A stretch of DNA of 64,000 nucleotides from Candidatus Binatia bacterium (GCA_963666515.2 OY762897.2:2112001-2176000); one strand, 5' to 3'; positions 28,840 through 64,000 are shown, counted from the first letter of the stretch. A program made the numbers and translations. The notes: generated by a model from the sequence alone, not told the origin.

Positions 28840-29901
28840 TTACTGTACCGGCTGAGAAATGTCGAGTTGGTAGAGGTTCTTGACGTTGGTGCAGACCAGC
28901 TTCTTCCGTATGTCCGCCGGCAGGTGGCCCAGGTCGCGCTCGATATAGCGCTTGGACTCCGGCCACGTGGAGTTGGCGTGGGGGTAGTCGTTGGACCACA
29001 TGCAGTTGTCCTGACCCCACCACTCGAAGTTGTGCCCGGCCACCGTGTCGCGGAAGAAGGTGCCGAAGAACTGCTCGTTGAAGTACTCGCTGGGGTTCTT
29101 GGTGATGGAGATGGGGTTCTCTCCCTTGAACCGGTTCCAGTAGTAGTCCCACTGCTGCAGCATGAACGGCATCCAGCCGATCTCGTTCTCGACGCACACG
29201 AACTTGAGCTTGGGGTGGCGCTCCATGATGCCGTAGAAGATGAAGTCGAAGACGGCGTTGATGATCTCCTGGAGCTTCAGGTTGACGCTGCCGCGGTAGG
29301 GCTCGACGCCGATGCGCTGGTTACCGAACACGGTTTTCTTGTGGTAGCCGTGGCCGGTGAGGATGTGCAGGTGCACCGGCAGCTCGAGGTCCGCGGAAGC
29401 GGCCCAGAACTTCTCGTAGTGGTCCGAGTGGAACGGCAGGTCCGCGTGCGGCGCCTGCCAGATGAGCGAGCCCTTGAGACCCTTCTTGGCGCAGCGCTCG
29501 AGTTCCTTCACCGCGTTGTCGATGTCGTACATGGAGATGGCCGCCACCCCTACCAGCCGGTTGGGCGCCACCGAGGAGTAGTCCACCACCCAGTCGTTGT
29601 AGGCGCCGAATGAAACTTCCTGCAGCTTGGCGTCATCCATGGCGAAGTGCGGCAGCAGGTAGGTCGGGAAGAGTACCTCCGCGCTCACCCCGTCGGTCTC
29701 CATCTCGGTGATGCGCTTGTCCGGGTCCGATCCGCCCGGCTGGGTCTGAAAGCTCTCCCCCAACTTCAACTGGGGAAAGCGCGGCACCTGGTCCCTGTAC
29801 CCTTTGGGAGCCCTTTCCACCAGGATGTCCGACGGCTCCATGACGTGGGAGTCCGATGAAATAATGACTTCACAGCCCGCCAGTGTTCCGTTGTCTGCCA
29901 T
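28840..29901 (-). CDS. Amidohydrolase_2 family
   Basis: SSDSHVMEP, WSNDYPHANSTWP. Confidence 0.9.
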   Translation of the reverse strand: MADNGTLAGCEVIISSDSHVMEPSDILVERAPKGYRDQVPRFPQLKLGESFQTQPGGSDPDKRITEMETDGVSAEVLFPTYLLPHFAMDDAKLQEVSFGAYNDWVVDYSSVAPNRLVGVAAISMYDIDNAVKELERCAKKGLKGSLIWQAPHADLPFHSDHYEKFWAASADLELPVHLHILTGHGYHKKTVFGNQRIGVEPYRGSVNLKLQEIINAVFDFIFYGIMERHPKLKFVCVENEIGWMPFMLQQWDYYWNRFKGENPISITKNPSEYFNEQFFGTFFRDTVAGHNFEWWGQDNCMWSNDYPHANSTWPESKRYIERDLGHLPADIRKKLVCTNVKNLYQLDISQPVQ

Positions 29902-29995
29902 TTGATTGTCCCCCTTGCGAACGTTTCACAAATTTTCGCGCACTTAACCTAGCGTCTAGCATTACCGGTCTTGGGGCGTCAAGATTCGCCCTCCT

Positions 29996-31174
29996 TCACG
30001 TAACGCCGTTCTCGCGCAACTCCGCCAGCGCCTCCTCGTCGTAGCCGAGGCCGCGCAGGATTTCGTCGGTGTTCTCGCCCAGAACCGGCGCCGCGCGGTG
30101 AAACCGCATGGGCGTGTCGGACAACTGGATAGCGTTGCCGATGAGGTTGCTTGTCCCCATGCCGGGATGGCGGATCTCCTGCGGCAGGCCCATCTCCTTC
30201 ACCTGCGGGTCGTCCAGCACCTCCTCGATCTTGTATATCGGCGCGTTGGGCACGCTGACCGCGTCCAGGGCATCAAGCCAGTGGTCCCGCGGCTTTTTCT
30301 CGAACTCCGCCTGCAGGATGGGGACGATGTCATAGTGGTGCTTCCAGCGGTCGTTGCGGGTGGCGAAGCGCGGGTCGTCCAGCAGGTCCCGGCGGCCCAC
30401 GGCGCTCACCAGCCCCTCCCAGGCCTTCTGGTGTCCGGAGAGGTGGATCACCAACGGTTTACGGTCGCTGGGGATGAAGCAGTAGATGCGCCCGCGCGGG
30501 AAGTTTTCCCGGGTGATGGCTTCGCCGCCGTTCAGGTAGTCGGCCATGTGCGACTCGATGAACGCCAAGCTGATGCGCAGCAGCGAGGCGTCGACGAACT
30601 GGCCGCGGCCGGTGTGGTGGCGCGCCAGCAGCGCCCCGAGGATGCCGTAGGCGGCGAACACCCCGGTGGAATGATCGGTGACCGAGACCCCCACTACCTT
30701 GGGCTTGTCGAAGTCGGTCATGAGGCTCAGCATGCCGCTCAGGGCTTGGCCGATGGTGTCGAAGCCGGGCTTGTCGCGGTAGGGGCCCTCCTGGCCGTAC
30801 CCCGTGATGGAGCAATGGACCAGCCTGGGATTGAGTTCGGAAAGGCGCTCGTAGTCGAGGCCGAGCTTCGTGCGCGTCTCGGGACGGAAGTTCTCCAGCA
30901 GGACATCAGCCTTTTCCAGCAGCTTGAGCAGGATCTCCTTGCCCTGGGGCTTGCGGAGGTCCAGGGTGAGGCTCCGCTTGTTGCGGTTGAGCGCCCGGAA
31001 GCTCGGTCCGTAGCCCTCGTACAGCGGATTCCGCCCGCGGTGCGTATCACCCCCGTCGGGCAACTCCACCTTGATGACGTCGCACCCGAGGTCGCCCAAG
31101 AGGCTCCCGCAGAACGGCCCGGCCACGTGGCCGCTTAGATCCAGCGCCATGGTCCCCTGCAATGCCGCGTTCAT
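29996..31174 (-). CDS. CaiB/BaiF family III CoA-transferase
   Basis: AGPFCG, NRNKRSLTLDL, ENFRP, catalytic Asp region VSVTD. Confidence 0.93.
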   Translation of the reverse strand: MNAALQGTMALDLSGHVAGPFCGSLLGDLGCDVIKVELPDGGDTHRGRNPLYEGYGPSFRALNRNKRSLTLDLRKPQGKEILLKLLEKADVLLENFRPETRTKLGLDYERLSELNPRLVHCSITGYGQEGPYRDKPGFDTIGQALSGMLSLMTDFDKPKVVGVSVTDHSTGVFAAYGILGALLARHHTGRGQFVDASLLRISLAFIESHMADYLNGGEAITRENFPRGRIYCFIPSDRKPLVIHLSGHQKAWEGLVSAVGRRDLLDDPRFATRNDRWKHHYDIVPILQAEFEKKPRDHWLDALDAVSVPNAPIYKIEEVLDDPQVKEMGLPQEIRHPGMGTSNLIGNAIQLSDTPMRFHRAAPVLGENTDEILRGLGYDEEALAELRENGVT

Positions 31175-31398
31175 GATTCAGGACGCCTCCCTTTCGCCAC
31201 ACCGCTGCCACTGCCCTTGAGACTCCGTAGTGGACCAATTCGCACAGATCGTTCGATAGTTCCCGCATCGGGGTTCTCGGGCATGACGAGTTCCAGGAGA
31301 AGCTGCAGTCGCTGGTTCCCGGACAGCTTCCGGTAGTAAGCGTAGTCGGCTTCTTCTTCCTCGGCGAAGGAGGTGAATTTGCGAACTACCCTTTCCAT
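31171..31398 (-). CDS. Small hypothetical protein (antitoxin-like)
   Basis: MERVVRKFTSFAEEEEADYAYYRKLSGNQRLQLLLEL; ATGA overlap with the CoA-transferase start. Confidence 0.5.
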   Translation of the reverse strand: MERVVRKFTSFAEEEEADYAYYRKLSGNQRLQLLLELVMPENPDAGTIERSVRIGPLRSLKGSGSGVAKGRRPES

Positions 31399-31493
31399 AA
31401 CGGCCTTCGACGGCTTCCCAGTATAGCCGATATGGACCATAGTGGGGAACGGGAACAGAGGATTGAGATGACCGAGATACCGACGGAGGACTC

Positions 31494-31874
31494 GTGAAGG
31501 ACGGAATCGTGAAAGGACTCGAAGGCGAGTGGGTGATCGAAACGACGCGGGAGATGGCGGCGGCGCATATCGCGGACGAAGGTCTCCTGGTCTACTCGAC
31601 GCCCGCCATGGTCGGCCACATGGAGCGCGCCTGCGTGGAGACGGTACGCCCGTACCTGGACGACGACGAGGTGTCGCTGGGGGTGCGGGTAGAGATCTCC
31701 CACATCGCCGGAACGGGAATGGGCGAGACCGTCCGCACGAGCGCGAAACTCACCGGCGTGGAAGGCCGCCGCCTGAGCTTTACGGTGGAGGCGCACAACG
31801 AACGCGAGAAGATCGGCGAGGGTAGCCACCAGCGCGTGGTGGTGAAACGGGACCGGCTGCCGTCAAAGAAGTGA
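31494..31874 (+). CDS. FlK-type hotdog thioesterase
   Basis: STPAMVGHMERAC, SH, GEGSHQR. Confidence 0.9.
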   Translation: MKDGIVKGLEGEWVIETTREMAAAHIADEGLLVYSTPAMVGHMERACVETVRPYLDDDEVSLGVRVEISHIAGTGMGETVRTSAKLTGVEGRRLSFTVEAHNEREKIGEGSHQRVVVKRDRLPSKK

Positions 31875-32015
31875 CCACCCGCCGCCCCGCGCCGGCGCCG
31901 GGCCGCGCTTGACAGCCCGTCGGGGCGCGTGGTGATATTGGGCGCCGCGCGGGTTTGGCTGCGCGGGCGGCTTCGGCAAGAACTTCATGGGCGTGCGACG
32001 GCGACGGAGCGACAC

Positions 32016-32705
32016 ATGGCAGGCACCAGTTCCCTGAGAGAGAGGCTCGAAGCCGCGGTGCTGGAGCGGCACTGCGCGAACCATCCGCTGACCGAGAAGT
32101 GGGCCGCGGGCAAGCTCAGCCGCAACGCCATGATGGGTTGGGCCATCGAGCAGTACCACTGGATCAGCAACATCTACCGCGGCGAGCTGTACAAGGCGGC
32201 CAATACGCCGCTCGAGGTGCAGCGGCTGCTGCTGGGCAACTACCTGGAGGAGAGCGACCCGGAACGGCCGCACCTGGACATCATCCTGCGCTTTTGCACC
32301 GCCAACGGCGGCGACGCCGAGGCCGCCAAGCGCGGCCGCGGACTGCCCACCACCGAAGCCTGGGCGACCTGGTTCAACCGGGTGTGCAGGGACGAGTCCT
32401 TCATCTGCAGCGTGGCCGCCACCAACATCGGCACCGAGTCCCAGTCGCCCATGCTGTACAGCAAGGTGCTTCCGGCCCTGCGTGACGTCTACCACTTCGA
32501 CGAAGACGCCATCGAGCACTTCTGGCTCCACGCGGACGTGGATACCGAGCATGGCGGCCGGGGCTTCGATATCCTGGAACGGTACTGCACCACACCCGAG
32601 CTACAGCAGATGGCCGTCGATTACGCCCGGGAGAGCGCGAAGATGCGCTGGTTCTTCTTCGACGGCATCTACATCCACTACGAGATGGGCTACGAGTTGC
32701 GGTAG
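32016..32705 (+). CDS. CADD/PqqC/TenA-fold heme-oxygenase-like diiron protein
   Basis: NYLEE..PH, GTESQSP, FWLHADVDTEH ligand set; GGAG RBS. Confidence 0.85.
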   Translation: MAGTSSLRERLEAAVLERHCANHPLTEKWAAGKLSRNAMMGWAIEQYHWISNIYRGELYKAANTPLEVQRLLLGNYLEESDPERPHLDIILRFCTANGGDAEAAKRGRGLPTTEAWATWFNRVCRDESFICSVAATNIGTESQSPMLYSKVLPALRDVYHFDEDAIEHFWLHADVDTEHGGRGFDILERYCTTPELQQMAVDYARESAKMRWFFFDGIYIHYEMGYELR

Positions 32706-32735
32706 GCTGCAACGTAGCGGCGTGAAGGGCACGGC

Positions 32736-33788
32736 ATGAAGACCGAACCGCAGGATTTAACAGAGCTGGACAGCTATCTCGCGGACCGATGGCTGTCGGG
32801 CCTGTGGAAGCTGGACCGCCACGAACGCACGCCCGACCCCCAGACGAAGGTGGTGCCGCACCTGTGGAAATGGAAAGACGTTTACGAGAGTCTCCAGCAG
32901 GCCCGGGACCGCATCGGCATCGAGAAGGGGCGCACCGAGCGCCGCACCATCCGTCTGGTCAACCCCGGGATGCGGCACATCGAGATGACCAGCCACACCA
33001 TGCTACTGGCCTGCCAGATGATCCAGCCCGGCGAGGTGGCCCCGGCCCACCGCCACACCATGGCCGCCATCCGTTTCATCGTCCAGGGCGAAGGCGCCTA
33101 CACGGTGGTCAACGGCGAGAAGCTCGACATGGCGGAGGGGGACCTGATCCTCACGCCGCAGTGGACGTGGCACGACCACGGACACGAGGGCGCCGAGCCG
33201 ATGGTCTGGCTCGACGGCCTCGACGTTCCGCTGATCCAGTCGCTGCAGGTGATCTCCTACGAGCCCTATTCCGAGGAGAAGCAGGCGACCCGGGCGAGCG
33301 AGCAGGAAGCGTCGCATTTCGGCATGACCCGCCCGGTGCGATCTGACGACCAAGGCGCGCCTGCGCCGCTCCACTACCGCTGGGAAGACACCTACCGCTC
33401 GCTACAGGCGCTGGCCGAGACGCCCGGCGACCCCTACGACGGCGTCGCCCTCGAATACGTGAATCCCCTCACCGGCGGCAGGACGCTACCGACCCTGTCC
33501 TGCTGGGCTCAGATGCTGCGCCCAGGCGAGCGCACCCGCGCTCACCGTCACAACAGCACCAGCATCTACCACGCGCTCCGCGGCAGCGGCGCCACGGTCA
33601 TCAACGGCCAGACGCTGGAGTGGAACAAGGGAGACACGTTCATCGTGCCGCTGTGGAGCTGGCACGAGCACGCCAATCGCTCGGACGGCGAGGAGGCGGT
33701 CCTGTTTTCCATGCACGATATTCCCGTGCTGGAGGCCTTCGGGCTGCACCGCCAGGAGAGCATGGACGAATCCGGCATGGGAATGTAG
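32736..33788 (+). CDS. Gentisate 1,2-dioxygenase-family bicupin
   Basis: ERRTIRLVNPG, APAHRH, WTWHDH, EYVNPLTGG. Confidence 0.9.
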   Translation: MKTEPQDLTELDSYLADRWLSGLWKLDRHERTPDPQTKVVPHLWKWKDVYESLQQARDRIGIEKGRTERRTIRLVNPGMRHIEMTSHTMLLACQMIQPGEVAPAHRHTMAAIRFIVQGEGAYTVVNGEKLDMAEGDLILTPQWTWHDHGHEGAEPMVWLDGLDVPLIQSLQVISYEPYSEEKQATRASEQEASHFGMTRPVRSDDQGAPAPLHYRWEDTYRSLQALAETPGDPYDGVALEYVNPLTGGRTLPTLSCWAQMLRPGERTRAHRHNSTSIYHALRGSGATVINGQTLEWNKGDTFIVPLWSWHEHANRSDGEEAVLFSMHDIPVLEAFGLHRQESMDESGMGM

Positions 33789-33854
33789 CCACTGTTAACA
33801 GTGCGTCGATGACCAAAATAACCAAAGCGTGCCAACGAAGGAGGAACCACGACG

Positions 33855-34904
33855 ATGGACAGATACCGTGCAACGATACTGACTTCGATTCTTGCAGCGC
33901 TCGTCCTGTGCGCTGCCCCGGCGCCCGCGGCGGACTACTATGAGGGCAAGACCATCAGCGTCCTGGTCTCTTCGAGCCCCGGCGGCGGCACCGACGCCAC
34001 CGCGCGGCTGGTCTCGCGTTTCCTGCCGAAGTTCATACCCGGCAACCCCAAGACCATCGTGCAGAACATGCCCGGCGGCGGCGGCACCGTGGTCAACAAC
34101 TACTACACGCGCCGGGCCAAGCCGGACGGGCTGACCCTGCTGCAGGATTCCTCGTCCGCGCTGAGCACCTACGTGCGCGGCGGCAAGCGGGTCCGGTACA
34201 ATCCCAGGACGTATTCGTACATCGGCTCCATCATGCGCGGCGGCAGCATCCTCATGGTGCGGAAGGACGCGCGCAAACGCCTCACCGACTCCAAGGCCAA
34301 GCCCGTGGTGGTGGGCGATTCGGACGGCATCCGCACCTGGGTGGCCATGACCGTCTGGGGAGCCAAGTACCTGGGTTGGAACAACCGCTGGATCTTCGGC
34401 TACGCCGGCACCGGCGAGATGGTCCTGGCGCTCAGGCAGGGCGAGATCGAGATGTGGGGCACCGGCAACGCCAAGCTCATCCGGGATCTGCAACGGGACG
34501 GCGTGGTGGACCCGCTGGTGCTGCTGACGGACCAGCGCCGCAAGGACTTCCCCGACATCCCGACCTTCGAGGAAGTGCTCGGCGACAAGAAACCCGGCGG
34601 CATCTCCTGGCAGGCCTACAAGGTATGGGCCGGCCCTTCGGACGTGGACAAGTTTCTCCACGCCCCCAAAGGAACCCCCGCGAACGTCATGGACATCCTA
34701 CACGGGGCCTGGGCCAAGATGGTGCAGGATCCGAAGTTCCAGACCGAGGCCACCAAGTTCTTCGGCGAGGCCTGGAGGACCCGTGACGGTGCAGCCACGG
34801 CCAAGCTCGTGATGGAAGTGACCAACGCTTCACAGGAGGTGAAGGACTTCCTCTTCAACATCCGCAAGGAGCACGGCCTGCCCACGGGCAAGAAGAAGAA
34901 ATAA
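33855..34904 (+). CDS. tctC: TTT substrate-binding protein
   Basis: Signal peptide, SPGGGTDATAR, QNMPGGGG. Confidence 0.9.
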   Translation: MDRYRATILTSILAALVLCAAPAPAADYYEGKTISVLVSSSPGGGTDATARLVSRFLPKFIPGNPKTIVQNMPGGGGTVVNNYYTRRAKPDGLTLLQDSSSALSTYVRGGKRVRYNPRTYSYIGSIMRGGSILMVRKDARKRLTDSKAKPVVVGDSDGIRTWVAMTVWGAKYLGWNNRWIFGYAGTGEMVLALRQGEIEMWGTGNAKLIRDLQRDGVVDPLVLLTDQRRKDFPDIPTFEEVLGDKKPGGISWQAYKVWAGPSDVDKFLHAPKGTPANVMDILHGAWAKMVQDPKFQTEATKFFGEAWRTRDGAATAKLVMEVTNASQEVKDFLFNIRKEHGLPTGKKKK

Positions 34905-34945
34905 CGTCGCGCTGAGCCGCACTATCCGGCAGTCTTCGTCAGCCC

Positions 34946-36454
34946 ATGCTCGAAGCCGCGTTTGACGGCCTGCTCGGCGTCCTGACCCTGCACTCCCTGG
35001 GCATGATGGCCCTGGGAGTGCTGATCGGGAGCATGGTGGGGTTCCTGCCGGGAATCGGCGGCCCCACCACCCTGGCCATCATGCTCCCCTTCGTGATGAC
35101 CATGCAGGATCCCTATCCGGTCATCGCGCTGCTGGTGGGCCTGGACGCCGTGGGCAACACCGCCAGCGCCTTCCCTTCCATCCTCATCTCCATACCCGGG
35201 AGCTCGGGCTCCCAGGCAACCATTCTGGACGGCTATCCCCTGGCCAAGCAGGGCCAGGCGGCGCGGGCGCTGAGCGCCTCCTTCGCGGCCTCGCTGCTGG
35301 GCGGGTTCGTGGGCGCCCTGGTGCTGGTGGCCTCCCTGCCGATCCTGCGCCCGCTGGTGCTGACCTTCGGCTCGCCGGAGTTCTTCGTCCTGACCCTGTG
35401 GGGCCTCACCATGGTCGCGGTGCTGAGCGGCAACGCCCCGGTCAAGGGCATCATCGCCGGCATCATCGGCGTGCTGGTGGCCACCATCGGCATGGACGTG
35501 AAGTCGGGAATCCCCCGGTTCGACTTCGACTACGACTACCTGTGGGACGGCATCAGCCTCATCATCGTCGCCCTGGGCCTGTTCGGCATCCCGGAGATCA
35601 TCGACCTGGCGAGCCGCAAGACCAGCATCGCGGAGCACGAGGAGCTGGGCAGCGGCTTCCTCCAGGGCATCAAGGACGTGTTCCGCCACTGGTGGCTGAT
35701 GGTGCGGTCTTCCGCCATCGGCGCGTGGGTCGGTTTCCTGCCGGGACTCGGCAGCTCCGTTGCCGACTGGTTCGCCTATGCCCACGCGGTGCAGACCGAG
35801 AGGAACACCGAGGGCTTCGGCAAGGGCGACATCCGCGGGGTGATCGCGCCCGAGGCGTCCAACAACGCCAAGGAAGGGGGCGGATACATACCGACCCTGG
35901 CCTTCGGCATCCCGGGCAGCACGTCCACGGCGTTGATCCTCACCGCCTTCGTGGCCGTGGGCATCAAGCCCGGCCCTGACATGCTGACATCGCAGCTCGA
36001 CCTCACCTTCGCGGTGATCTGGACCTTGGTCATCGGCAACGTCATCGCGGTGGTGATGTGCGGCGCCCTCGCCAAGCCCATGGCGCGGGCGTGCTTCATG
36101 CCCTTCCACAGCATCGTGCCGCTGGTGGCGGTGTTCGTCTTCATCGGCGCCTTCGCCGCCAACTTCAGCGTCAACGACCTGCGCGCGCTGCTGGTGTTCT
36201 CGCTGCTGGGCTTCATGATGCGGCGGCACGGCTGGCCGCGGCCGCCGCTGCTCCTGGGGGTGGTGCTGGGCACCAAGATGGAGACCTACCTGTGGCTTTC
36301 CTACACCCGCTACGGTTTCGAGTGGCTGTTGCGGCCGGCCGTCATCATCCTGCTCGTTCTGGTGGCGGCGTCGCTGTGCTACCCCATGCTCAAGGGGCGG
36401 CGCGAGCGGCGGCAAGCCGCCGTTGCCGCGGGTGAGACATCGGGGGAGACATGA
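34946..36454 (+). CDS. tctA: TTT large permease
   Basis: ATILDGYPLAKQG, GVIAPEASNNA. Confidence 0.92.
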   Translation: MLEAAFDGLLGVLTLHSLGMMALGVLIGSMVGFLPGIGGPTTLAIMLPFVMTMQDPYPVIALLVGLDAVGNTASAFPSILISIPGSSGSQATILDGYPLAKQGQAARALSASFAASLLGGFVGALVLVASLPILRPLVLTFGSPEFFVLTLWGLTMVAVLSGNAPVKGIIAGIIGVLVATIGMDVKSGIPRFDFDYDYLWDGISLIIVALGLFGIPEIIDLASRKTSIAEHEELGSGFLQGIKDVFRHWWLMVRSSAIGAWVGFLPGLGSSVADWFAYAHAVQTERNTEGFGKGDIRGVIAPEASNNAKEGGGYIPTLAFGIPGSTSTALILTAFVAVGIKPGPDMLTSQLDLTFAVIWTLVIGNVIAVVMCGALAKPMARACFMPFHSIVPLVAVFVFIGAFAANFSVNDLRALLVFSLLGFMMRRHGWPRPPLLLGVVLGTKMETYLWLSYTRYGFEWLLRPAVIILLVLVAASLCYPMLKGRRERRQAAVAAGETSGET

Positions 36455-36945
36455 ACGGCGACAGACGGCTTCACTACGAGGGCATCCTCTTCACCCTGGC
36501 CGTCGGGCTGGTGCTGCTCTGGGCTCTCCGCGTGGCCCACGGCTGGGACGAGTTGCGCGCATCCATCATCATCTTCGTCCTGGGGGGCATCGGCGTGTGC
36601 CTGGCCGCGCTCCAGGTCGTGATGGACTTGCGCCCGAGGCGTGGCGGAGAGCAGGCAGGAGGCATCCACATGGACGCCCCGGTCCTTCAGTCCTCCGGCC
36701 GCTGGGGCAATGTCGAAATATGGGCCTGGATCCTGGGCTTCTACGCCGCCATCCGGATCATCGGGTTCCCCGCGACGGTCCCGTTGTTCGTCTTCGGCTA
36801 CGCCAAGTTCTACGGCGCGAGCTGGCTGCTCTCCTGCCTCCTGGCCGCCCTGGCCTGGGGGTTCGTCTACGGCGTCTTCGAGCACGTCCTCCACGTGCCC
36901 TGGCCGGAGCCGTGGCTGGCCGGGCTGTTCCTCAGCCCTGCCTGA
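36451..36945 (+). CDS. tctB: TTT small permease
   Basis: 4-5 TM segments, LHVPWP end, ATGA overlap with tctA. Confidence 0.85.
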   Translation: MNGDRRLHYEGILFTLAVGLVLLWALRVAHGWDELRASIIIFVLGGIGVCLAALQVVMDLRPRRGGEQAGGIHMDAPVLQSSGRWGNVEIWAWILGFYAAIRIIGFPATVPLFVFGYAKFYGASWLLSCLLAALAWGFVYGVFEHVLHVPWPEPWLAGLFLSPA

Positions 36946-37735
36946 GGTTGATCACCGAACTCACCCCGCGGCCGGCGTCGGTGTGGATCACCTCGCCGGT
37001 CATGATGCGCGACTGGGACGAAGCCAGCAGCACGTAGGCGGCGGCGTGGTCCTCCGGGACCACGGCGACATCGAGGAGATTGTTGGGGAGCCCCGCCGGC
37101 GGCCGGGGCGCGCCGAAGACGTCGTCGCCTCCGGCCCCCGGGGCCAGAGACGGCGCCGCGCGCAGGCCGGTGGCGGTGCCGGACGGCGCCACTCCGTTCA
37201 CCCGGACCGTGGGCGCCAGTTCGTTGGCCAACTGGCGCACCAGCCCCAGCGCGGCGTGCTTGGAGGCGACGTAGAGGGTACCTCCGCTCACGTAGTAGGA
37301 GGACGTGGAAAGCGTGAAGACCATGTTGCCGCGGGTCTTCATCAGCTCGGGGATGGCGGCCTTGGCGCCCATGAAATAGCCCTTGACGTTGACCCCGAGG
37401 ACCTCTTCGTAGCCCTGCTCCAGTTCCTCGTCCGAAAGCTCCGCCAAGGGCCGTCTGGCGTCGTGGATGCCGGCGTTGCCCACGAACACGGTGAGCTTGC
37501 CGAACTCCGACACAGCCGCGGCCACCGCCCGCCGGTTGTCCGCCAGGCTCCGCACGTCGCCGGAAACGACGGCCACGTTGTCACCTATCTCGTCCTTCAA
37601 CGCGGCCAGCCGTTCTCCCGACATGTCGAAGGCTACCACCTTGGCGCCCTCCTCCACGAAACGCGCCACCACCGCCTTGCCGATTCCGGAACCGGACCCG
37701 GTCACGACCGCCACCTCGTTTTCGAGCCATTGCAT
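36932..37735 (-). CDS. SDR, cis-dihydrodiol dehydrogenase (BphB/HcaB-like)
   Basis: TGSGSGIG, NAGIHD, VNVKGY, YVASKHA. Confidence 0.85.
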   Translation of the reverse strand: MQWLENEVAVVTGSGSGIGKAVVARFVEEGAKVVAFDMSGERLAALKDEIGDNVAVVSGDVRSLADNRRAVAAAVSEFGKLTVFVGNAGIHDARRPLAELSDEELEQGYEEVLGVNVKGYFMGAKAAIPELMKTRGNMVFTLSTSSYYVSGGTLYVASKHAALGLVRQLANELAPTVRVNGVAPSGTATGLRAAPSLAPGAGGDDVFGAPRPPAGLPNNLLDVAVVPEDHAAAYVLLASSQSRIMTGEVIHTDAGRGVSSVINLRQG

Positions 37736-37802
37736 GGACGTCACCTCCTTGATCGTGGCTGTAACATACCAATCACCGGCCCGGTTCGGAACCCGGCGAA
37801 CC

Positions 37803-37832
37803 TTGACACTTCCACGGGCGCGGGGATAGAGT
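37803..37832 (+). promoter_or_regulatory. Putative sigma70 promoter
   Basis: TTGACA-N18-TAGAGT. Confidence 0.45.
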
Positions 37833-37866
37833 CGCCTCTGTAGCCGGTGCGTCCGGCGGTGTTCCC

Positions 37867-38904
37867 ATGACGGTACGATTTCCCACAACCGGGGCTATCG
37901 CGGGCGATCTCTACGGCATGGTGCTGCGCGAACTGACGCTGTGCAGGGCCACGTCCGACGAGACCGTCGTGGTGTTCACCGACACCCGCACCAACACCAA
38001 CTACGCCGCCGCGTTCCTGGCCGCGGCCAAGGAGGTGGCCGCCAGCGCGTTCGAGATCAAGATTCCCCTTCTGCCCGGCACCGAGGGCAACGACACCAAC
38101 GTGGCGCCGGTGGTGGAGATCCTGAAGACCGCGCACTTGGTGGTGGACCTCACCACCGGCGGCGTCCTCTACCTCTACAGCAAGACGCTCGCCGACGTGC
38201 TGTCGGGTGGCACCCGGGTGCTCCAGGTGCGCGGCACCGAGGACCAACTCCGGCGGTGCTTCCCCGACGAGGCAGTGCGGCAACGGACCCTGAACGGCGC
38301 AAGGAAACTGGAAGAAGCCGGGGAGATCCGCGTCACCACCGAGACCGGCACCGACCTCACCATGCGCAAGGACGGCCGGCGCGGGGTCACCCAGTACGGC
38401 ATCAGCGACGTGCCCGGACGCTGGGACAGTTGGCCCTCGGGCTTCCTCTACTGCGCGCCGCTGGAGGACAGCGCCAACGGCACGCTGATGCTGGATCCCG
38501 GCGACCTGCTGGTGATGCTGGGCCGCTACGTCCAACAGCCCGTGCGCATCGAGGTGAAGGACGGCTGTATTACCGCGGTCGAGGGGGGCGTGGACGCCAT
38601 CCTGCTGAGAGAGCACCTGGAGCAGTCGGGAGACTCCCAGGCGTTCATCATCTCCCACATCGGCTGGGGCACGGACCCGCGGGCGCGCTGGGTGGAGGTG
38701 GCGCAGCGCGGCACCGAGGAAGGCGCCCGGGACGCCCGCTCCACCTACGGCAACGTGCAGATCGCCTTCGGCGCCAACTACGCCCTAGGCGGGAAGAACA
38801 CCACGCTGGCCCACGAGGACCTGATCCTGCGCCGGGCCGCGTTCCATCTCGACGGGGAGATGATCGTGGATGACGGCCGGATCATCCCCGAAGAGCTGAC
38901 GTGA
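37867..38904 (+). CDS. NicX-like 2,5-dihydroxypyridine dioxygenase / M29-fold protein
   Basis: QYGISDVPGRWDSWPSG, SHIGWG, HED. Confidence 0.78.
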   Translation: MTVRFPTTGAIAGDLYGMVLRELTLCRATSDETVVVFTDTRTNTNYAAAFLAAAKEVAASAFEIKIPLLPGTEGNDTNVAPVVEILKTAHLVVDLTTGGVLYLYSKTLADVLSGGTRVLQVRGTEDQLRRCFPDEAVRQRTLNGARKLEEAGEIRVTTETGTDLTMRKDGRRGVTQYGISDVPGRWDSWPSGFLYCAPLEDSANGTLMLDPGDLLVMLGRYVQQPVRIEVKDGCITAVEGGVDAILLREHLEQSGDSQAFIISHIGWGTDPRARWVEVAQRGTEEGARDARSTYGNVQIAFGANYALGGKNTTLAHEDLILRRAAFHLDGEMIVDDGRIIPEELT

Positions 38905-39010: not shown

Positions 39011-39874
39011 GTGGATGCCATGAACCTGACCGTCAAACCCGTTTCCCCCGCCATCGGCGCCGAGATAGAGGGCCTGGACCTGCGTGAGCCGCTGGCCGAT
39101 GCGGCCCGCGAAGCGGTCCTGGACGCGTTCCACGAGCATGTCCTCCTGCTGTTCCGGGACCAGCACCTGACGGAGCTGCAGCAGACGGCCTTCGCCATGA
39201 CGTTCGGGGAACTGGGCAAGCGCACGGTGGGCGCCCGATTCGTCAAGTCCCCGAAGGACACCTACGCCAACCCGGTGATGATGGTCACCAACCGTAGCGA
39301 CGACGGACCCACGGGCAACACGGCCTCCTTCGGCGACGGCGAGATGTGGTTCCACCACGATACCTGTTTCTACCCGGTGCCCAACATCGTCACCATGCTC
39401 TACGGAATCGAGGTCACCAGCGAGGGAGGCCTGACGCGGGTCTCGAACATGTATCGGGCCTATGACAACATTCCCCGGGAACTTCGCGACCGGCTGGAGG
39501 GACGCACCGTCCTGCAGGTGTACGACTACAACCGTTACCGCATCGACCCCAACGTGGATATGACCGGCGCCCGCAGCCATGTGCAGCCCATCTTCATCAC
39601 CCACCCGGTCACGGGCAGGAAGGCGCTCTACGTGAACCGCACCATGACCGCGCACATCGAAGGCATGGACCGGGCCGAGAGCGACGCCATCCTCGACGAG
39701 CTGTTCGACATCGCCGAGGACGACCGCATCGTCTACGACCACGAGTGGCGGGTGGGCGACCTGCTCATGTGGGACAACCGCTGCTCCACTCACGCGCGCA
39801 CCGACTTCCCCGCGGAGGAGGCGCGAATCCTGCGGCGGTGCACCGTGGCCGGCAAGGAGCCGGTTCACGCATAG
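39011..39874 (+). CDS. TauD/TfdA dioxygenase
   Basis: FHHD, HPVTGRKALYV, WDNRCSTHAR. Confidence 0.92.
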   Translation: MDAMNLTVKPVSPAIGAEIEGLDLREPLADAAREAVLDAFHEHVLLLFRDQHLTELQQTAFAMTFGELGKRTVGARFVKSPKDTYANPVMMVTNRSDDGPTGNTASFGDGEMWFHHDTCFYPVPNIVTMLYGIEVTSEGGLTRVSNMYRAYDNIPRELRDRLEGRTVLQVYDYNRYRIDPNVDMTGARSHVQPIFITHPVTGRKALYVNRTMTAHIEGMDRAESDAILDELFDIAEDDRIVYDHEWRVGDLLMWDNRCSTHARTDFPAEEARILRRCTVAGKEPVHA

Positions 39875-39904
39875 AACAGAACCTCGGCCAGACAGGAGAA
39901 GACC

Positions 39905-40762
39905 ATGAGCCTGACCACGAGACCGCTTTCACCGGCCCTGGGCGTGGAAATTCTCGGACTGGACGTGAGCGAGCCGCTGGACGTCAAGGTCCGGGACGAA
40001 ATCCTGTCCGAGTTCTACAAGAATATCGCGCTGCTCTTTCGCGGCCAGAACATGACGGTGGAGCAGCAGAACCGCTTCACCACCACGTTCGGGGAGATCG
40101 GCAAGCGCACGGTGGGGCCGCGGCTCCGAAAATCCGCGGACGACATCTACACGACGCCGGTGATGGTGGTGAGCAACATCAAGGAGGACGGCAAGCCGCT
40201 GGAAGGGGCCTCGGCCAACGGCGACAGGGAGATGGGCTTCCACCAGGACACCGCGTTCCACGAGATACCCGACCACGTCACCATCCTCTACGGCATCGAG
40301 GTGTCGGCCCACGGCGGCCACACCATGGTGACCAACCAGCACGCGGCCTATGACCATGTCCCCGCGGACCTCAAGGCGAAGCTGGAGGGCTGCAAGGTGC
40401 TGCAGGTCTATGATTACCAGCGGCACACGGTGGACGCCGACATCGACCTGAGCGGCGCCCGCTACTACGTGCAGCCCATCTTCATCACGCACCCGGTGAC
40501 GGGCCGCAAGGCGTTGTACGTGAACCGCATGATGTCCGTGCGCATCGAGGGCATGGAGCGGGCCGAGAGCGACGCCATCCTCAGCGACCTGTTCGACATC
40601 ACCGAGGATCCGCGCTTCCGGTACGAGCACACCTGGGAGGTGGGGGACCTGCTGATGTGGGACAACTTCTGCTCGATCCACGCCCGCACGTTCTACCCGG
40701 ACGAGGAGCGGCGGCTCTTGCGGCGCACCACCGTGGCTGGCAAGGACCGGCTGCACGCCTGA
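39905..40762 (+). CDS. TauD/TfdA dioxygenase (tandem paralog)
   Basis: FHQD, HPVTGRKALYV, WDNFCSIHAR. Confidence 0.92.
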   Translation: MSLTTRPLSPALGVEILGLDVSEPLDVKVRDEILSEFYKNIALLFRGQNMTVEQQNRFTTTFGEIGKRTVGPRLRKSADDIYTTPVMVVSNIKEDGKPLEGASANGDREMGFHQDTAFHEIPDHVTILYGIEVSAHGGHTMVTNQHAAYDHVPADLKAKLEGCKVLQVYDYQRHTVDADIDLSGARYYVQPIFITHPVTGRKALYVNRMMSVRIEGMERAESDAILSDLFDITEDPRFRYEHTWEVGDLLMWDNFCSIHARTFYPDEERRLLRRTTVAGKDRLHA

Positions 40763-41170: not shown

Positions 41171-41314
41171 GCACCTCCTTGAGGGATAGGCCCTCTATAC
41201 CCCGAATGATATGCGAAGGGTATGGGAAGGCCGACGGCTTCATGCGCGCCGTGGGATCATGTAGACTATGCGGGAATCCTGAATCGTCCGTTCCATCCCG
41301 TGAGCAAAACCGGA

Positions 41315-43648
41315 ATGCCCGACGACACCACCAGGCGCGCGCCCCCGCTCGACTTCATCCGCACCATCGTCCGGGACGACCTGGCCGGCGGGAAACACCC
41401 CGGCGGCGTGGTCACCCGCTTTCCGCCGGAGCCCAACGGCTTTCTCCACATCGGCCACGCCAAGTCCATCTGCCTGAACTTCGGCGTCGCCGGGGAATTC
41501 GGCGGCCGTTGCAACCTGCGCTTCGACGATACCGACCCGGCCAAGGAGGACACGCTCTTCGTCGAGGCCATCAAGGACAACATCCGCTGGCTGGGCTTCG
41601 ACTGGGGCGAGGGCCTGTACAACGCCTCCGACTACTTCGAGGAGCTTTACCGCTTCGCCGTCCAGCTCATCGAGCGCGGCGGCGCCTACGTGTGCAGCCT
41701 GAGCGAGGCGGAGATCCGGGAGACCCGCGGCACGGTGACGGAGCCCGGCCGCGAGAGCCCCTACCGCGCCCGCGCGGTGGACGAGAACCTCGACCTGTTC
41801 GCCCGCATGCGCGCCGGCGAGTTCCCTGACGGCGCCCACGTGCTGCGTGCCAGGATCGACATGGCGTCGCCGAACATGAAGATGCGCGACCCGGTGATCT
41901 ACCGCATCCGCCACGTCACCCACCACCACACCGGCGACGCCTGGCCCATCTATCCCATGTACGACTTCGCCCACCCGCTGTCGGACGCGCTGGAAGGGGT
42001 CACCCACTCCCTCTGCACCCTGGAGTTCGAGAACAACCGGGAGTTCTACGACTGGATCCTGGCGCAGGTGGACGTCCCCTCCACCCCGCGTCAGATCGAG
42101 TTCGCCCGGCTGAACCTCGACTACACGGTAATGAGCAAGCGCCGGCTGCTGGAGCTGGTGGAGGAGGAGCACGTCGCCGGGTGGGACGACCCGCGCATGC
42201 CCACCCTGGCCGGACTGAGGCGGCGCGGCTACACGCCCGAGGCCATCCGCAACTTCTGCCACAGCGTCGGCATCGCCAAGAGCGACAACACCGTCGAGAT
42301 GGGCCAGCTAGAGTACTTCATTCGCGACGACCTGAACCACAAGGCTCCCCGGGTGCTGGCTGTCGAACGTCCCCTCAAGGTGGTCCTCACCAACTACCCG
42401 GAGGGTCGCGTGGAAGAGCTGGAGGCGCCCTACTATCCCCACGACGTGCCCAAGGAAGGATCGCGCCCGCTCCCCTTTTCCCGCGAGATATACATCGAGC
42501 GGGACGACTTCCTCGAAGAACCGCCCAAGGGCTACCGCCGGCTGGCGCCGGGGCGCGAGGTGCGGCTGCGCTACGCCTACATCATCCGTTGCGACGAGGT
42601 GGTCAAGGATCCATCCACGGGCGAGGTGACGGAGTTACGCTGCTCCTACGACCCGGAGACCCGGAGCGGCTCCGACAAGAGCGGCAAGAAGGTGCAGGGC
42701 ACCATCCACTGGGTATCCGCCGCTCACGCGCTCGAAGCCGAGTTGCGGCTCTACGACCGGCTGTTCTCGGCGCCGGACCCCCAGGGCGACCCCGGCCGCG
42801 ACTATCGCGAGCTGCTGAACCCCAAGTCCCTGGAGACCGTCACCGGACTCGTCGAGCCGAGCCTGGACAGCGCCCGCCCGGGCGACCGCTTCCAGTTCGA
42901 GCGGCTGGGCTACTTCTGCGTGGACCCGGACTCCGCTGCCGGTGCGCCGGTGTTCAACCGCATCGTCACGTTGCGGGACTCGTGGCTCAAGATCGTACGG
43001 CGGGACGACGGCTCCGGCGAGCCCAGGCGGTCCCGCGGAACGCAGGCCGCCCCGAAGAACGCGGCCAGGGTTCCCGCGGAAAGAAGGGCGCCGGCCCCCG
43101 CCGAACTGACCGCGGCGCAGCACTCCAGAATGGAGCACTACCGCGACCGGCTCGGGCTCGCGACCGGCGACGCCTTCCTCCTGGCCTCGGACGACAGCCT
43201 GGCCGGGTTCTTCGAGGAGGCGGTCCGCGCCCACGACAACGCCAAGGCGGTGGCCAACTGGATCGTCAACGAACTGCGCCCGGCGGTGAAAGACAATCCG
43301 CTGGACTCATTGCCGTTGACTCCGGCGGCGCTGGCGGAACTGGTGGCCCTCATCGACAGCCAGACCATTTCCGGCAACGCCGGTAAACAGGTCTTCGCCG
43401 CCATGCTGGAAAGCCGCGAGAGCCCGGCCGGCATCGTCGAAAGGCTCGGACTCCGGCAGGTAACCGACGCGGGCCAGCTCGAACCCCTCGTCGACGCCGT
43501 CCTCGCCGCAAATCCCGGGAACGTCACCCTCTATCGCGAGGGCAAGACCAATCTCCTGGGATTCTTCGTGGGCCAGGTGATGAAGTCCACCAACGGCAAG
43601 GCCGACCCCCGCCTCGTCAACGAGTTGCTGCGGGCGAAGCTGGCCTGA
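41315..43648 (+). CDS. glnS: Glutaminyl-tRNA synthetase with C-terminal YqeY domain
   Basis: [19 protein letters not shown]-terminal [14 protein letters not shown]; start 41300 or 41315. Confidence 0.95.
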
Positions 43649-61656: not shown

Positions 61657-61675
61657 GGTGTCCGAGGGAAGCCAC

Positions 61676-62404
61676 ATGGAAGCGCACGCTGCGAAACGGA
61701 ACGGCGTGGAGAGCGTCTGGCAGGAACTGGTGGAGCTCGTCAACGCGCAGTTCGAGACCCCGCCCTTTCAGCGGCTGCTGGGGCTCCGGTTCTCGCAGGC
61801 GCGTGCCCAGGCCCTGTCCATCCAGATGAAGCACTACGTCGCCAACCGGCGGGACTGCTGGGCGTTCGTCGCCGGCGCCGCCCCGCTGAGCGTCAAGCGC
61901 CTCATCTGGGAGCACGAGGGCGAGGAGCTGATGGGCGACAAGGCCGCGGGCAAGGTGGACCACATCACGCTCGCCGTGCAAGAGGGCAGGATTTTCGGTC
62001 TGTCGCCCGAGGATTACGAGCGCGTACGCCCGCTGGACGCGGCTGTGGCGTGTTTCTACGCGTGGATCCACTTGGCCAAGGACCGGCCGTGGCGCGAGGC
62101 CGTCGCGGCGTCGGCAGTGCTGGAGATGCGCAACTCCGACGACTTGGTGCGCGGCGGCTCGCTGTCCTACCGCGTCGGCAAGAACCTCGAACGGGACCTG
62201 GGGATTCCGCTGAAGCGGCAGATCAACAACGCCGAGCACGTGACCGCGGACGTGGAGCACGGCCAACTCCTGCTGGAAGTGGCGCGCGAACACTGCCACA
62301 CCGAGGAAGAGCAGCAGGCGCTGCTGCGGGGCGCGCGGGAGAGCCTCGTGATCGACCGGGCCTACCGCGAGCAACTCGCCAACATGATGAAGGCGCTGGA
62401 CTAG
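61676..62404 (+). CDS. Heme-oxygenase-like (TenA/PqqC/CADD) diiron protein, paralog 1
   Basis: HEGEEL..DH, LEMRN, HVTADVEH. Confidence 0.75.
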   Translation: MEAHAAKRNGVESVWQELVELVNAQFETPPFQRLLGLRFSQARAQALSIQMKHYVANRRDCWAFVAGAAPLSVKRLIWEHEGEELMGDKAAGKVDHITLAVQEGRIFGLSPEDYERVRPLDAAVACFYAWIHLAKDRPWREAVAASAVLEMRNSDDLVRGGSLSYRVGKNLERDLGIPLKRQINNAEHVTADVEHGQLLLEVAREHCHTEEEQQALLRGARESLVIDRAYREQLANMMKALD

Positions 62405-62431: not shown

Positions 62432-63139
62432 ATGCCCGATATCGCGAAGCTCAAGAGCACTCTGAACGAGATGTGCAACCGCCAGTACACAACCGACGAG
62501 TTCCAGGACCTGCTCACGCTGCCCTGGACCATGGAGCGCGGGCGCTACTACGTGGTGCAGAACGCCCTCTACACCAGGAACCGGCGGGACTGTTGGGGCT
62601 ACGTGCAGGCCGCGGCGCCGCTGGACGTCAAGGCGCTGGTGTGGCAGCACGAGAGCGACGAACTGATCAACGACCCGCGCGCCGGCATGGATCACTACTC
62701 CCTGACCGTCAAGCAGGGCGAGGTCATCGGCCTGGAACGCGAGGACTTCGAGAAGGCCGAGTTGCCGCCCATGGCGCAGGCGGCCTTCCTCGCCTGGCAC
62801 CACATCGCCGTCAAGGGGCCGTGGCTGGCTTCGTTCACCTCCTCCCAGATGCTGGAGCGCCGCAACAACCCCGACATCGTGAAGGACGGCGGCATGTCCT
62901 ACCGTATCGGCAAGAAGTTCGAGAACGAGCTGGGCATCAGCCTCAAGCGGATGATCTCGCTCAACGTGCACTCCACCGCGGACACCGAGCACTCCGACAT
63001 GATGGACGGCGTCTACGACAAGCACGTGCGCACGCAGGAGGACTACGACACCGTGCTGCGGGCCGCGAAGCAGTGCATGGCCATCGACCGCGCCTACCGC
63101 GGCGGGCTGGCCTACGTCATGCAGCGCATCGAGGGCTGA
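62432..63139 (+). CDS. Heme-oxygenase-like diiron protein, paralog 2
   Basis: HESDEL..DH, LERRN, HSTADTEH. Confidence 0.75.
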   Translation: MPDIAKLKSTLNEMCNRQYTTDEFQDLLTLPWTMERGRYYVVQNALYTRNRRDCWGYVQAAAPLDVKALVWQHESDELINDPRAGMDHYSLTVKQGEVIGLEREDFEKAELPPMAQAAFLAWHHIAVKGPWLASFTSSQMLERRNNPDIVKDGGMSYRIGKKFENELGISLKRMISLNVHSTADTEHSDMMDGVYDKHVRTQEDYDTVLRAAKQCMAIDRAYRGGLAYVMQRIEG

Positions 63140-63163: not shown

Positions 63164-64000
63164 ATGAGCCTCGAAGACCTCAACAAGGATCTCGCCACCA
63201 AGCAACTGGCGGGTTTCTGGGCGTCCAACATCACCGACAACGACGGCGAGGTGCTGGAGCCCCGGACCACCGTGGTCCCCTACCTGTGGAAGTGGGACGA
63301 CATCTACAACGGGCTCTTGCAGGCCGGCGAACTGGTGAGCCTGGAACAGTCGGAGCGGCGCACCATCCGCCTCATCAATCCCGGCGTGCCCGGCACCACC
63401 GGCGCCACCAACACGGTGCACACCTCCATCCAGCTCGTGAAGCCGGGCGAGGTCGCCAAGGCCCACCGCCATACCCTGACCGCGCTGCGCTTCGTGCTCC
63501 GGGGCGGCGGCGCTTTCACCACAGTGGAAGGCGAGCGCTTCACCATGCACCCCGGCGACCTGATCCTCACGCCCCAGTGGACCTGGCACGACCACTACAA
63601 CGGCACCGGCGAGAACATCATGTGGCTGGACGGCCACGACGGCCCCCTGCTGAAGGCGCTGGAGGTGATGGCGGTGGAGCCCTTCGGCCAGAAGCAGCAG
63701 CCGGTGGAGGCCATGCCCGACTTCAGCCTGCACCAGTTCGGCTGGGCGCGTCCGCCCGAGCAGCTCTCGGAGTTCCCGGACCCGCCCTTCCGCTATCCGT
63801 GGGAGACCACTTACGAATCGCTGGAGGCGCTGGCGACGAGCCCGGGCGACGAGTGCGACGGGGTGCTGCTGCGCTACGTCAACCCGCGCAACGGCGGCTT
63901 CACGCTGCGCACCATCGGCTGCGAGATCCAGATGATCCGGCCCGGCGAGAATACGCGCTCGCACCGCCACACCAGCACCACCATCTACCACGTGTTCCGC
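63164..64000 (+). CDS. Gentisate 1,2-dioxygenase-family cupin (runs off window)
   Basis: Not in ORF track; hand translation MSLEDLNKDL..ERRTIRLINPG..AKAHRH..WTWHDH. Confidence 0.88.
   Translation, partial: MSLEDLNKDLATKQLAGFWASNITDNDGEVLEPRTTVVPYLWKWDDIYNGLLQAGELVSLEQSERRTIRLINPGVPGTTGATNTVHTSIQLVKPGEVAKAHRHTLTALRFVLRGGGAFTTVEGERFTMHPGDLILTPQWTWHDHYNGTGENIMWLDGHDGPLLKALEVMAVEPFGQKQQPVEAMPDFSLHQFGWARPPEQLSEFPDPPFRYPWETTYESLEALATSPGDECDGVLLRYVNPRNGGFTLRTIGCEIQMIRPGENTRSHRHTSTTIYHVFR

Follow-up and report, generated by a model that had tools for sequence, protein, structure and literature searches.

A CADD-like dimetal oxidase gene beside genes for a gentisate-type dioxygenase and an acid importer in a Candidatus Binatia genome

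The present analysis concerns a 64,000-nucleotide stretch of the genome of Candidatus Binatia bacterium (GCA_963666515.2 OY762897.2:2112001-2176000; hereafter the window), in which a gene for a heme-oxygenase-like dimetal oxidase (HDO) lies just upstream of a gene for a gentisate-type bicupin dioxygenase (GDO), followed on the same strand by the tctCAB genes of a tripartite tricarboxylate transporter (TTT). The genes and a structure model of the oxidase allow the construction of a model in which HDO-GDO-tctCAB is a compact catabolic operon, an imported aromatic acid being oxidised by HDO and its ring then cleaved by GDO; the chances that this model is right are put at about even. It proposes that the TTT system would import a free aromatic carboxylic acid and that HDO, with two metal ions (Fe/Fe or Fe/Mn), would activate O2 and oxidise the free small molecule in what may be a multi-turnover reaction, after which the gentisate-type bicupin would open the ring between C1 and C2. 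The residues of HDO itself would not be sacrificed, unlike those of CADD, and coenzyme A (CoA) esters would not be needed. For the oxidation, the likeliest guess is ring hydroxylation of a 3-hydroxy- or 3-aminobenzoate type of compound to a 5-substituted salicylate, and such hydroxylation of a 3-substituted benzoate is put forward tentatively. We infer the order of the two steps, as well as the type of oxidation and the class of substrate.

Oxidase, dioxygenase and their recurrent pairing

Domain and family assignments were made by Pfam and NCBIfam profile searches, and the gene identities on which the model is built are established: the CaiB/BaiF, FlK, HDO, gentisate-type cupin and tctCAB genes all stand where an earlier note, generated by a model from the sequence alone, had placed them. 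That note had also described the oxidase as a CADD-like protein with a full ligand set and no NRRDCW motif, and the description holds. HDO passes the PF14518 gathering threshold (73.6 bits against 28.9), the NRRDCW motif is absent from it and present in HDO2, the oxidase of a second cluster in the window, and all six of its metal ligands (E79, H86, E141, H172, D176 and H179) are unchanged throughout an alignment of 18 family members. Four arginines (R18, R108, R205 and R211) are invariant as well. The fold is equally plain from an AF2 model (pLDDT 93.2), whose top Foldseek match is CtCADD (8va9; TM 0.84/0.90, root-mean-square deviation 1.8 A, 21% identity) and whose further matches include PqqC, UndA, HrmI, FlcD and BesC, every one with probability 1.00. 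Compared with solved structures, a profile of the 18-member family matches 4-aminobenzoate synthases best (9pj4, E 2e-26; CtCADD 1rcw, E 1.5e-15), then PqqC and then TenA-like proteins.

According to PMC9522330, CADD makes para-aminobenzoate (pABA) from its own Tyr27, in the peptide HMLEHTFYVK, with Lys152 nearby. These residues are missing from HDO, in which Tyr27 is replaced by T26, a Thr invariant in the family, and Lys152 by V151. Because of these replacements, and because its scores fall far under the cut-offs of the CADD model (TIGR04305; 80.5 bits, cut-off 200) and the PqqC model (TIGR02111; 28.6 bits, cut-off 240), HDO is assigned by its sequence to the dimetal HDOs of the CADD branch and is predicted not to be a CADD-type suicide enzyme or pABA synthase; the making of pABA by HDO was an outcome that the earlier note had named as one that would overturn its proposal. 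Nor does the gene context point to folate synthesis, as the neighbours of HDO are catabolic enzymes and importers in every context type seen. Other resources were less specific: the ESM Atlas returned generic PF14518/TENA clusters only, and a plasmid collection gave seven records of HDO homologues, all 33-34% identical, including a Cupriavidus record that is unannotated there. Among 2172 longer candidates, fusions of HDO with a cupin or another domain came to two singletons, in which PF01326, or PF04138/PF01066, is joined to PF14518; both are regarded as gene-call artefacts.

GDO is a full-length bicupin that matches the gentisate dioxygenases 3bu7 (E 2e-74) and 2d40 (E 2e-70) of the PDB. The HxH...H motif of its N-terminal cupin is aligned with theirs, and its His residues are taken by us to be metal ligands. 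The best NCBIfam match is 5-aminosalicylate 1,2-dioxygenase (NF049978; 339.2 bits, cut-off 650), with gentisate 1,2-dioxygenase behind it (TIGR02272; 276.5 bits, cut-off 442.1). By sequence GDO belongs to the gentisate dioxygenase class, and its true substrate is probably another substituted salicylate, since it is one of nine paralogues and lies below both equivalog cut-offs.

The adjacency of the two genes recurs within the source genome, which carries 13 PF14518 HDO genes (the six ligands are retained in 13 of 13) and nine GDO paralogues. Three GDOs have a same-strand HDO 25-111 nt upstream, and at a fourth locus the row reads HDO, luciferase-like monooxygenase, GDO. An HDO is thus found within 200 nt at three of nine GDOs and within 1.5 kb at four of nine, where the means expected from random placement are 0.05 and 0.12; the observed three and four were reached in 1 and 0 of 20000 random placements of the 13 HDOs. 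To the detriment of the model, this significance is overstated, since catabolic genes cluster and the control takes no account of it. The GDOs of the three tight pairs are mutual closest paralogues (50-51%) and form one subclade, while the HDOs of the three pairs are 0-30% identical to one another and have closer paralogues that are unlinked. One of these pairs, HDO2 and GDO2, lies near the window end, and the claim of a second HDO-then-cupin pair with a dissimilar HDO was therefore borne out: HDO2 is of the NRRDCW subtype and HDO gives no BLASTP match to it at E 1e-3, and GDO2 is 51% identical to GDO. This second cluster reads HDO-HDO-GDO, with an additional oxidase gene ahead of HDO2, and past the window end a 383-aa cupin gene (L090:4176-5327) follows GDO2.

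The pairing is also found beyond the genus. In five genomes from two other families of the order, an HDO lies within 1.5 kb at 7 of the best 30 GDO loci. The best orthologue of the window GDO (65% identity, L101) has an HDO of another subtype beside it, together with an ABC binding protein; an HDO/GDO pair of the source genome (H_2055k type) recurs in another family with 70% (HDO) and 60% (GDO) identity (L110); and L122 carries an HDO-GDO-tctA row, a binding protein or TctA standing alongside at L101, L117 and L122. A functional linkage of HDO and GDO, as the earlier note had argued, is supported because the order recurs with dissimilar HDOs beyond chance and again in other families. A small protein of the VOC/glyoxalase fold (112-114 aa) is a second recurring partner of HDO besides GDO; it lies beside tctC and an HDO at L083:3030-5213 of the source genome (G000:C1:19029-21212) and at L023-L027, and the L083 protein is 78% identical to its counterpart in the outgroup of the present HDO family although the adjoining HDOs are of different subtypes. 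The pattern of an importer, an HDO and a protein of an Fe(II)-type dioxygenase fold is thus general in this lineage.

The wider distribution of these genes was also surveyed. Each of the 21 genomes searched from the genus and order has 4-30 PF14518 genes, and any at all occur in only 2 of 14 well-known control genomes. The HDO2 subtype was found in 0 of 300 genomes spread evenly over the phylum at E 1e-20, a result that says little, as only about ten of these are of the same class. A non-orthologous displacement of HDO by a flavin hydroxylase found no support, as no flavin hydroxylase gene lies within 1.5 kb 5' of the HDO-less GDO orthologues at the 10 loci examined. With regard to transcription, two contigs from an RNA library, about 85-93% alike, span the last 37-42 nt of HDO and the 5' part of GDO over a divergent spacer, which points only weakly to co-transcription in a relative, DNA carry-over being possible. 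Sampled sequence words were present at 90-98% in four sequencing runs and at 0.19 or less in the remaining ones. The RNA evidence consists of assembled contigs only, giving no RNA starts, ends, strand or level, and parts of FlK that lack cover are not evidence.

Neighbourhoods in relatives and competing explanations

The neighbourhood of the HDO family was surveyed with one genome per species, which gave 73 loci (53-95% identity) from Binatia, Chloroflexota and many Alphaproteobacteria, all of them metagenome-assembled genomes (MAGs). Window proteins were searched for by tblastn at E 1e-10 with at least 50% coverage, and again at E 1e-2. The 14 close loci, with an HDO at least 90% identical, belong to one genus and share an 18-kb neighbourhood, and are therefore counted as one event; the others number 59. 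Genes at the loci were called by a GC3-minus-GC2 heuristic that missed HDO itself in 10 of the 73, so that neighbour counts based on clusters are lower bounds.

In the close loci GDO is 3' of HDO (14 of 14), and of the 13 that extend far enough, all but L017 have TTT genes after GDO (12 of 13). Farther away, the HDO family member of one alphaproteobacterial MAG (L064) adjoins genes for a GDO, a ChrR-type cupin and TctC, which is a second independent association of this family with GDO. Other Alphaproteobacteria have a row of a second HDO, RidA and an A1-type HDO beside a TRAP system, a VanA-type Rieske oxygenase and short-chain dehydrogenases/reductases (SDRs); this row with RidA occurs in L044, L046, L048, L051, L053, L079-L081 and others. 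A further alphaproteobacterial row consists of caprolactamase-like HydAB, a PreA-like reductase, MarR, a luciferase-like monooxygenase, HDO, an FAH-family hydrolase, DUF1223 and a lactonase-like MBL protein. Genes of the OCD or Ldh_2 families are single-case neighbours. Importers of the TTT or TRAP kind are recurrent, the TctC cluster lying near HDO in 22 loci, and the cluster of HcaB/BphB-like SDRs, such as the one that ends against tctB in the window, is found near the family in 17. The theme shared by these contexts is the oxidative catabolism of organic, mostly aromatic, acids. In addition, plasmid pTT6-1 of Skermanella sp. TT6 (698045-702911, L132) encodes a 34%-identical HDO followed by three small ferredoxin genes, and also an aldehyde dehydrogenase, a heme-binding protein and a larger reductase-like 2Fe-2S protein. 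These ferredoxin and reductase-like neighbours fit an oxygenase that needs electrons, and possibly provide a complete electron-transfer set for an HDO in a cultured organism.

Several points weigh against the proposed model, or against hydroxylation as its oxidative step. GDO is near HDO in just two of the 59 other loci, L064 (divergent, 227 nt) and L075 (4-6 kb), and in the nearest outgroup (six loci, 79-84% HDO identity) the row reads tctC, HDO and a 114-aa VOC protein, with no GDO there. HDO, GDO, TctC and Amidohydro_2 are all heavily expanded in the genome, and reductase or ferredoxin genes are not encoded in the HDO-GDO-tctCAB operon. Further, HDO need not be a hydroxylase, as a ring hydroxylase already stands beside it at some loci, in the form of a Rieske alpha subunit of the ring-hydroxylating kind, accompanied by an HcaB-like dehydrogenase (L031, L032), or of an FAD aromatic-ring hydroxylase (L043, L079). 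PMC13133933 lists HDO reactions of N-oxygenation, olefin formation, methine excision, nitrile and skatole formation and pABA synthesis; its examples come from natural-product or folate biosynthesis, and the list has no aromatic ring hydroxylation and no catabolic step. RidA stands directly 5' of HDO in 12 loci, and together with the better match of GDO to 5-aminosalicylate than to gentisate dioxygenase (339 against 276 bits) this is a hint of amine chemistry in place of plain hydroxylation. The FAH hydrolase found near HDO in 14 loci, directly 3' in 11, would likewise agree with a role of HDO later than ring cleavage. It is conceivable, and this is the main alternative, that HDO acts on a nitrogen function (for example as an N-oxygenase, or by oxidatively deaminating an aminobenzoate or aminosalicylate) or on a ring-fission product, with GDO in the same pathway. 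PMC13133933 includes several N-oxygenases among its HDOs, and the product of CADD is itself an aminobenzoate. However, RidA and FAH are both outside this operon, both NCBIfam scores of GDO are under their cut-offs, and the HDO-then-GDO order gives no support for a later step; this alternative appears unlikely. An adjacency of no direct metabolic meaning, with separate pathways in a dense catabolic island having only regulation or an importer in common, would agree with the expansion of the families (13 HDO, 9 GDO, 47 TctC, 26 TctA and about 100 Amidohydro_2), with partners of the HDO family that differ between lineages, and with the HDO-less GDOs (5 of 9 in the genome, 23 of the best 30 in relatives). 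It fits poorly with the same-strand spacing of 25-111 nt in three pairs with dissimilar HDOs, with the recurrence of the H_2055k-type pair in another family (L110) and with the grouping of HDO-linked GDOs in one subclade, and is judged improbable.

The earlier note had offered a different pathway, in which CaiB activates a benzoate to its thioester, HDO hydroxylates it, FlK releases the product and GDO cleaves the ring, in the manner of PhgC, PhgA and PhgB. The arrangement is suggestive, as FlK, the sole copy in the genome, is on the same strand 141 nt upstream of HDO, CaiB is within 1 kb, both are kept in species-level relatives (FlK in 13 of 14, CaiB in 14 of 14) and the PhgABC precedent exists. 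Yet neither gene was found within 10 kb of HDO at any of the 59 loci below 90% HDO identity, even at E 1e-2, and their linkage, which is limited to the 14 close loci, counts as one event because these inherit the whole neighbourhood by descent. A linkage not kept in relatives was a second outcome that the earlier note had named as refuting its proposal, and it largely applies here. Even there the CaiB-HDO interval is a breakpoint: FlK is replaced in L078, and a DUF2204 gene is inserted beside CaiB in L015, L016 and L078. CaiB, one of 23 paralogues in the genome, reaches at best 271 bits against an NCBIfam cut-off of 750. It is present near FlK and divergent from it, as the earlier note had it, with the correction that a small open reading frame (ORF) of 89 aa, found in 10 of the 14 close loci and without a Pfam or NCBIfam match, lies between the two, and that CaiB, coupled to this ORF, is the second gene of a long minus-strand operon. 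At short distances 3' of CaiB that operon continues with two Amidohydro_2 genes, a CmcJ/NvfI oxygenase, an amidase, a CMD-family gene and a 2-oxoglutarate oxygenase. CaiB therefore reads as a member of the divergent operon and is probably not part of the HDO module, and the membership of FlK, a genus-specific neighbour, is doubtful. As no thioesterase or CoA enzyme stands beside the other HDO-GDO pairs examined, and nothing ties HDO to CoA esters, CoA activation and thioester hydrolysis as steps joined to HDO are not supported, and the pathway as a whole is considered quite improbable; the observation made in the earlier note is thus confirmed and its interpretation partly supported. It is also conceivable that HDO makes a cofactor or other metabolite, such as pABA in the manner of CADD or a PQQ-like compound, or that the HDO-cupin pair is biosynthetic, as in the HDO-cupin fusion SznF. 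The closest solved relatives (4-aminobenzoate synthases, with the E-values given above, and PqqC) point in this direction, as does the name 'pyrroloquinoline-quinone synthase' given to homologues in some sources. Against it stand the Thr and Val in place of Tyr27 and Lys152, the low CADD and PqqC scores, the failure of Pfam and NCBIfam searches to find folate, pqq or biosynthetic genes in the window, the importer in the operon, the 13 HDO paralogues and the nature of the cupin, which is a full gentisate-dioxygenase homologue; a biosynthetic role is very improbable.

Gene layout of the window

The source genome is 4.67 Mb in size and 98% complete, and the window corresponds to G000:C1:2112001-2176000. 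The features are collected in Table 1. The HDO ORF opens at a GTG at 31929, and the start was set at the ATG at 32016 because homologues are about 229 aa long (almost all of them exactly so, 120 among the matches listed) and align from there. With the HDO stop as given in the table, the interval to GDO is 30 nt, as had been noted before; the other intervals are 141 nt (FlK-HDO), 66 nt (GDO-tctC) and 41 nt (tctC-tctA), and tctA and tctB overlap by 4 nt. The transporter set is complete, TctC, TctA and TctB being co-encoded with PF03401, PF01970 and PF07331 all above cut-off.

Table 1. Positions of genes and sites in the window, counted from its first nucleotide
Feature	Position	Strand	Basis
CaiB/BaiF-type family III CoA-transferase	29996-31174	-	PF02515 (CoA_transf_3), E 3.8e-106
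Small conserved ORF, 89 aa	31171-31440	-	ORF list; family-less; stop overlaps CaiB start by 4 nt
FlK-type hot-dog thioesterase	31494-31874	+	PF22636, E 4e-34
TTGACA hexamer in the FlK-HDO interval	31909-31914	+	Read from sequence
HDO, CADD-like heme-oxygenase-like dimetal oxidase ('A1 family'), 229 aa	32016-32705	+	PF14518, 73.6 bits, E 2.2e-20
GDO, gentisate/5-aminosalicylate-type bicupin ring-cleavage dioxygenase, 350 aa	32736-33788	+	Two Cupin_2 stretches
TctC periplasmic binding protein	33855-34904	+	PF03401, 51.2 bits
TctA large membrane subunit	34946-36454	+	PF01970, E 3e-127
TctB small membrane subunit	36451-36945	+	PF07331, 37.7 bits
HcaB/BphB-like short-chain dehydrogenase, convergent with tctB	36932-37888	-	NF004849, 305.5 bits against cut-off 330
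Additional HDO, in tandem ahead of HDO2	61658-62404	+	PF14518, E 5e-14; 43% identical to HDO2
HDO2, NRRDCW subtype	62432-63139	+	PF14518; six ligands retained
GDO2, truncated by the window end	63164-64000 (to genome position 2176183)	+	TIGR02272, 239.6 bits on partial protein

The TTGACA hexamer between FlK and HDO had been read as a sign that the thioesterase may be transcribed separately. The hexamer is present, but the promoter scan found no -10 partner for it and reported no -35/-10 pair, and a promoter there was rejected, as the hexamer alone is not evidence. In the 8.2 kb scanned, promoter-like sites number one against 0.9 expected from shuffles and terminator-like sites three against 3.8 expected, none of the latter between FlK and HDO. 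An Rfam scan of 29800-37200 at E 0.1 gave zero matches. The DUF2204 nucleotidyltransferase-like gene that adjoins the 89-aa ORF in L015, L016 and L078 is perhaps a small toxin-antitoxin-like insert.

Elsewhere in the window, a MmeI-type restriction-modification enzyme with all five MmeI domains is truncated by the window start (2-2680, minus strand), and an 808-aa class I Glu/Gln-tRNA synthetase with a C-terminal GatB/YqeY domain is encoded at 41222-43648 (plus strand). A tandem pair of TauD/TfdA-family 2-oxoglutarate dioxygenases lies 3' of a family-less 345-aa ORF at 39011-40762 (plus strand), with synteny kept within the genus. The genome as a whole shows an expansion of catabolic and uptake genes, with some 100 Amidohydro_2 genes (105 and 87 matches with two queries), 47 TctC, 26 TctA, 23 CaiB and nine GDO.

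Comparison with known systems

The families involved are already known; the novelty lies in how they are wired and expanded, and in an enzyme of the CADD branch that lacks the sacrificial residues. A search of the literature found nothing that joins heme oxygenase-like enzymes with gentisate, and gentisate together with Binatota or Binatia was absent among the matches listed. To our knowledge, the gentisate pathways described so far rely on a flavin or Rieske enzyme, not an HDO, for the upstream hydroxylation. It is tentatively proposed that Binatia, some Alphaproteobacteria and Chloroflexota may use HDOs as multi-turnover catabolic oxygenases, in modules of an importer, an HDO and an Fe(II) dioxygenase (GDO or the small VOC protein); the HDO would there take the place that flavin or Rieske hydroxylases have in classical gentisate-type pathways. 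The present data suggest that an HDO family which is mostly biosynthetic also serves the breakdown of aromatic acids. If this is true, a conserved and expanded set of HDOs, linked with ring-cleavage dioxygenases and acid importers, would extend the HDO repertoire to aromatic catabolism, and the HDO of the window would be the first relative of CADD for which activity on a free hydroxy- or aminobenzoate is shown, giving enzymologists a CADD relative expected to turn over free substrate. It would also help to explain what use the uncultured, partly sponge-associated Binatia make of their very many oxygenases, decarboxylases and TTT binding proteins.

With CADD (CT610) and the 4-aminobenzoate synthases, HDO shares the seven-helix heme-oxygenase-like fold (TM 0.84-0.90, root-mean-square deviation 1.8 A to 8va9 and 1rcw) and the ligand pattern E, H, E, H-x3-D-x2-H at nearly identical positions, and they are its top sequence match among solved structures. 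However, HDO is only about 21% identical to CADD, has an invariant Thr for Tyr27 and a Val for Lys152, scores below the family cut-off, and stands in a catabolic context with an importer and many paralogues. GDO resembles the gentisate, salicylate and 5-aminosalicylate (MabB) 1,2-dioxygenases as a full-length bicupin with an aligned HxH...H motif, and differs from the gentisate and 5-aminosalicylate enzymes in falling below both equivalog cut-offs and in being one of nine paralogues. The PhgABC pathway, on which the earlier note had drawn, exists as described: in Brevibacillus laterosporus, 4-hydroxybenzoate is taken to gentisate by way of a CoA ester, according to PMC7862547 and PMC11848710. 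In both systems a hydroxylation, proposed here for HDO, would feed a gentisate-type cleavage and a thioesterase gene adjoins the oxygenase gene, although the HDO operon has no CoA ligase, the CoA-transferase gene is in another operon and the linkage is confined to one genus; HDO is set beside PhgA by the description of the pathway only. In SznF an HDO domain and a cupin domain are parts of one protein, and the present system may likewise employ an HDO and a cupin in one pathway, but as separate genes in a catabolic setting, with a cupin that is a homologue of gentisate dioxygenase.

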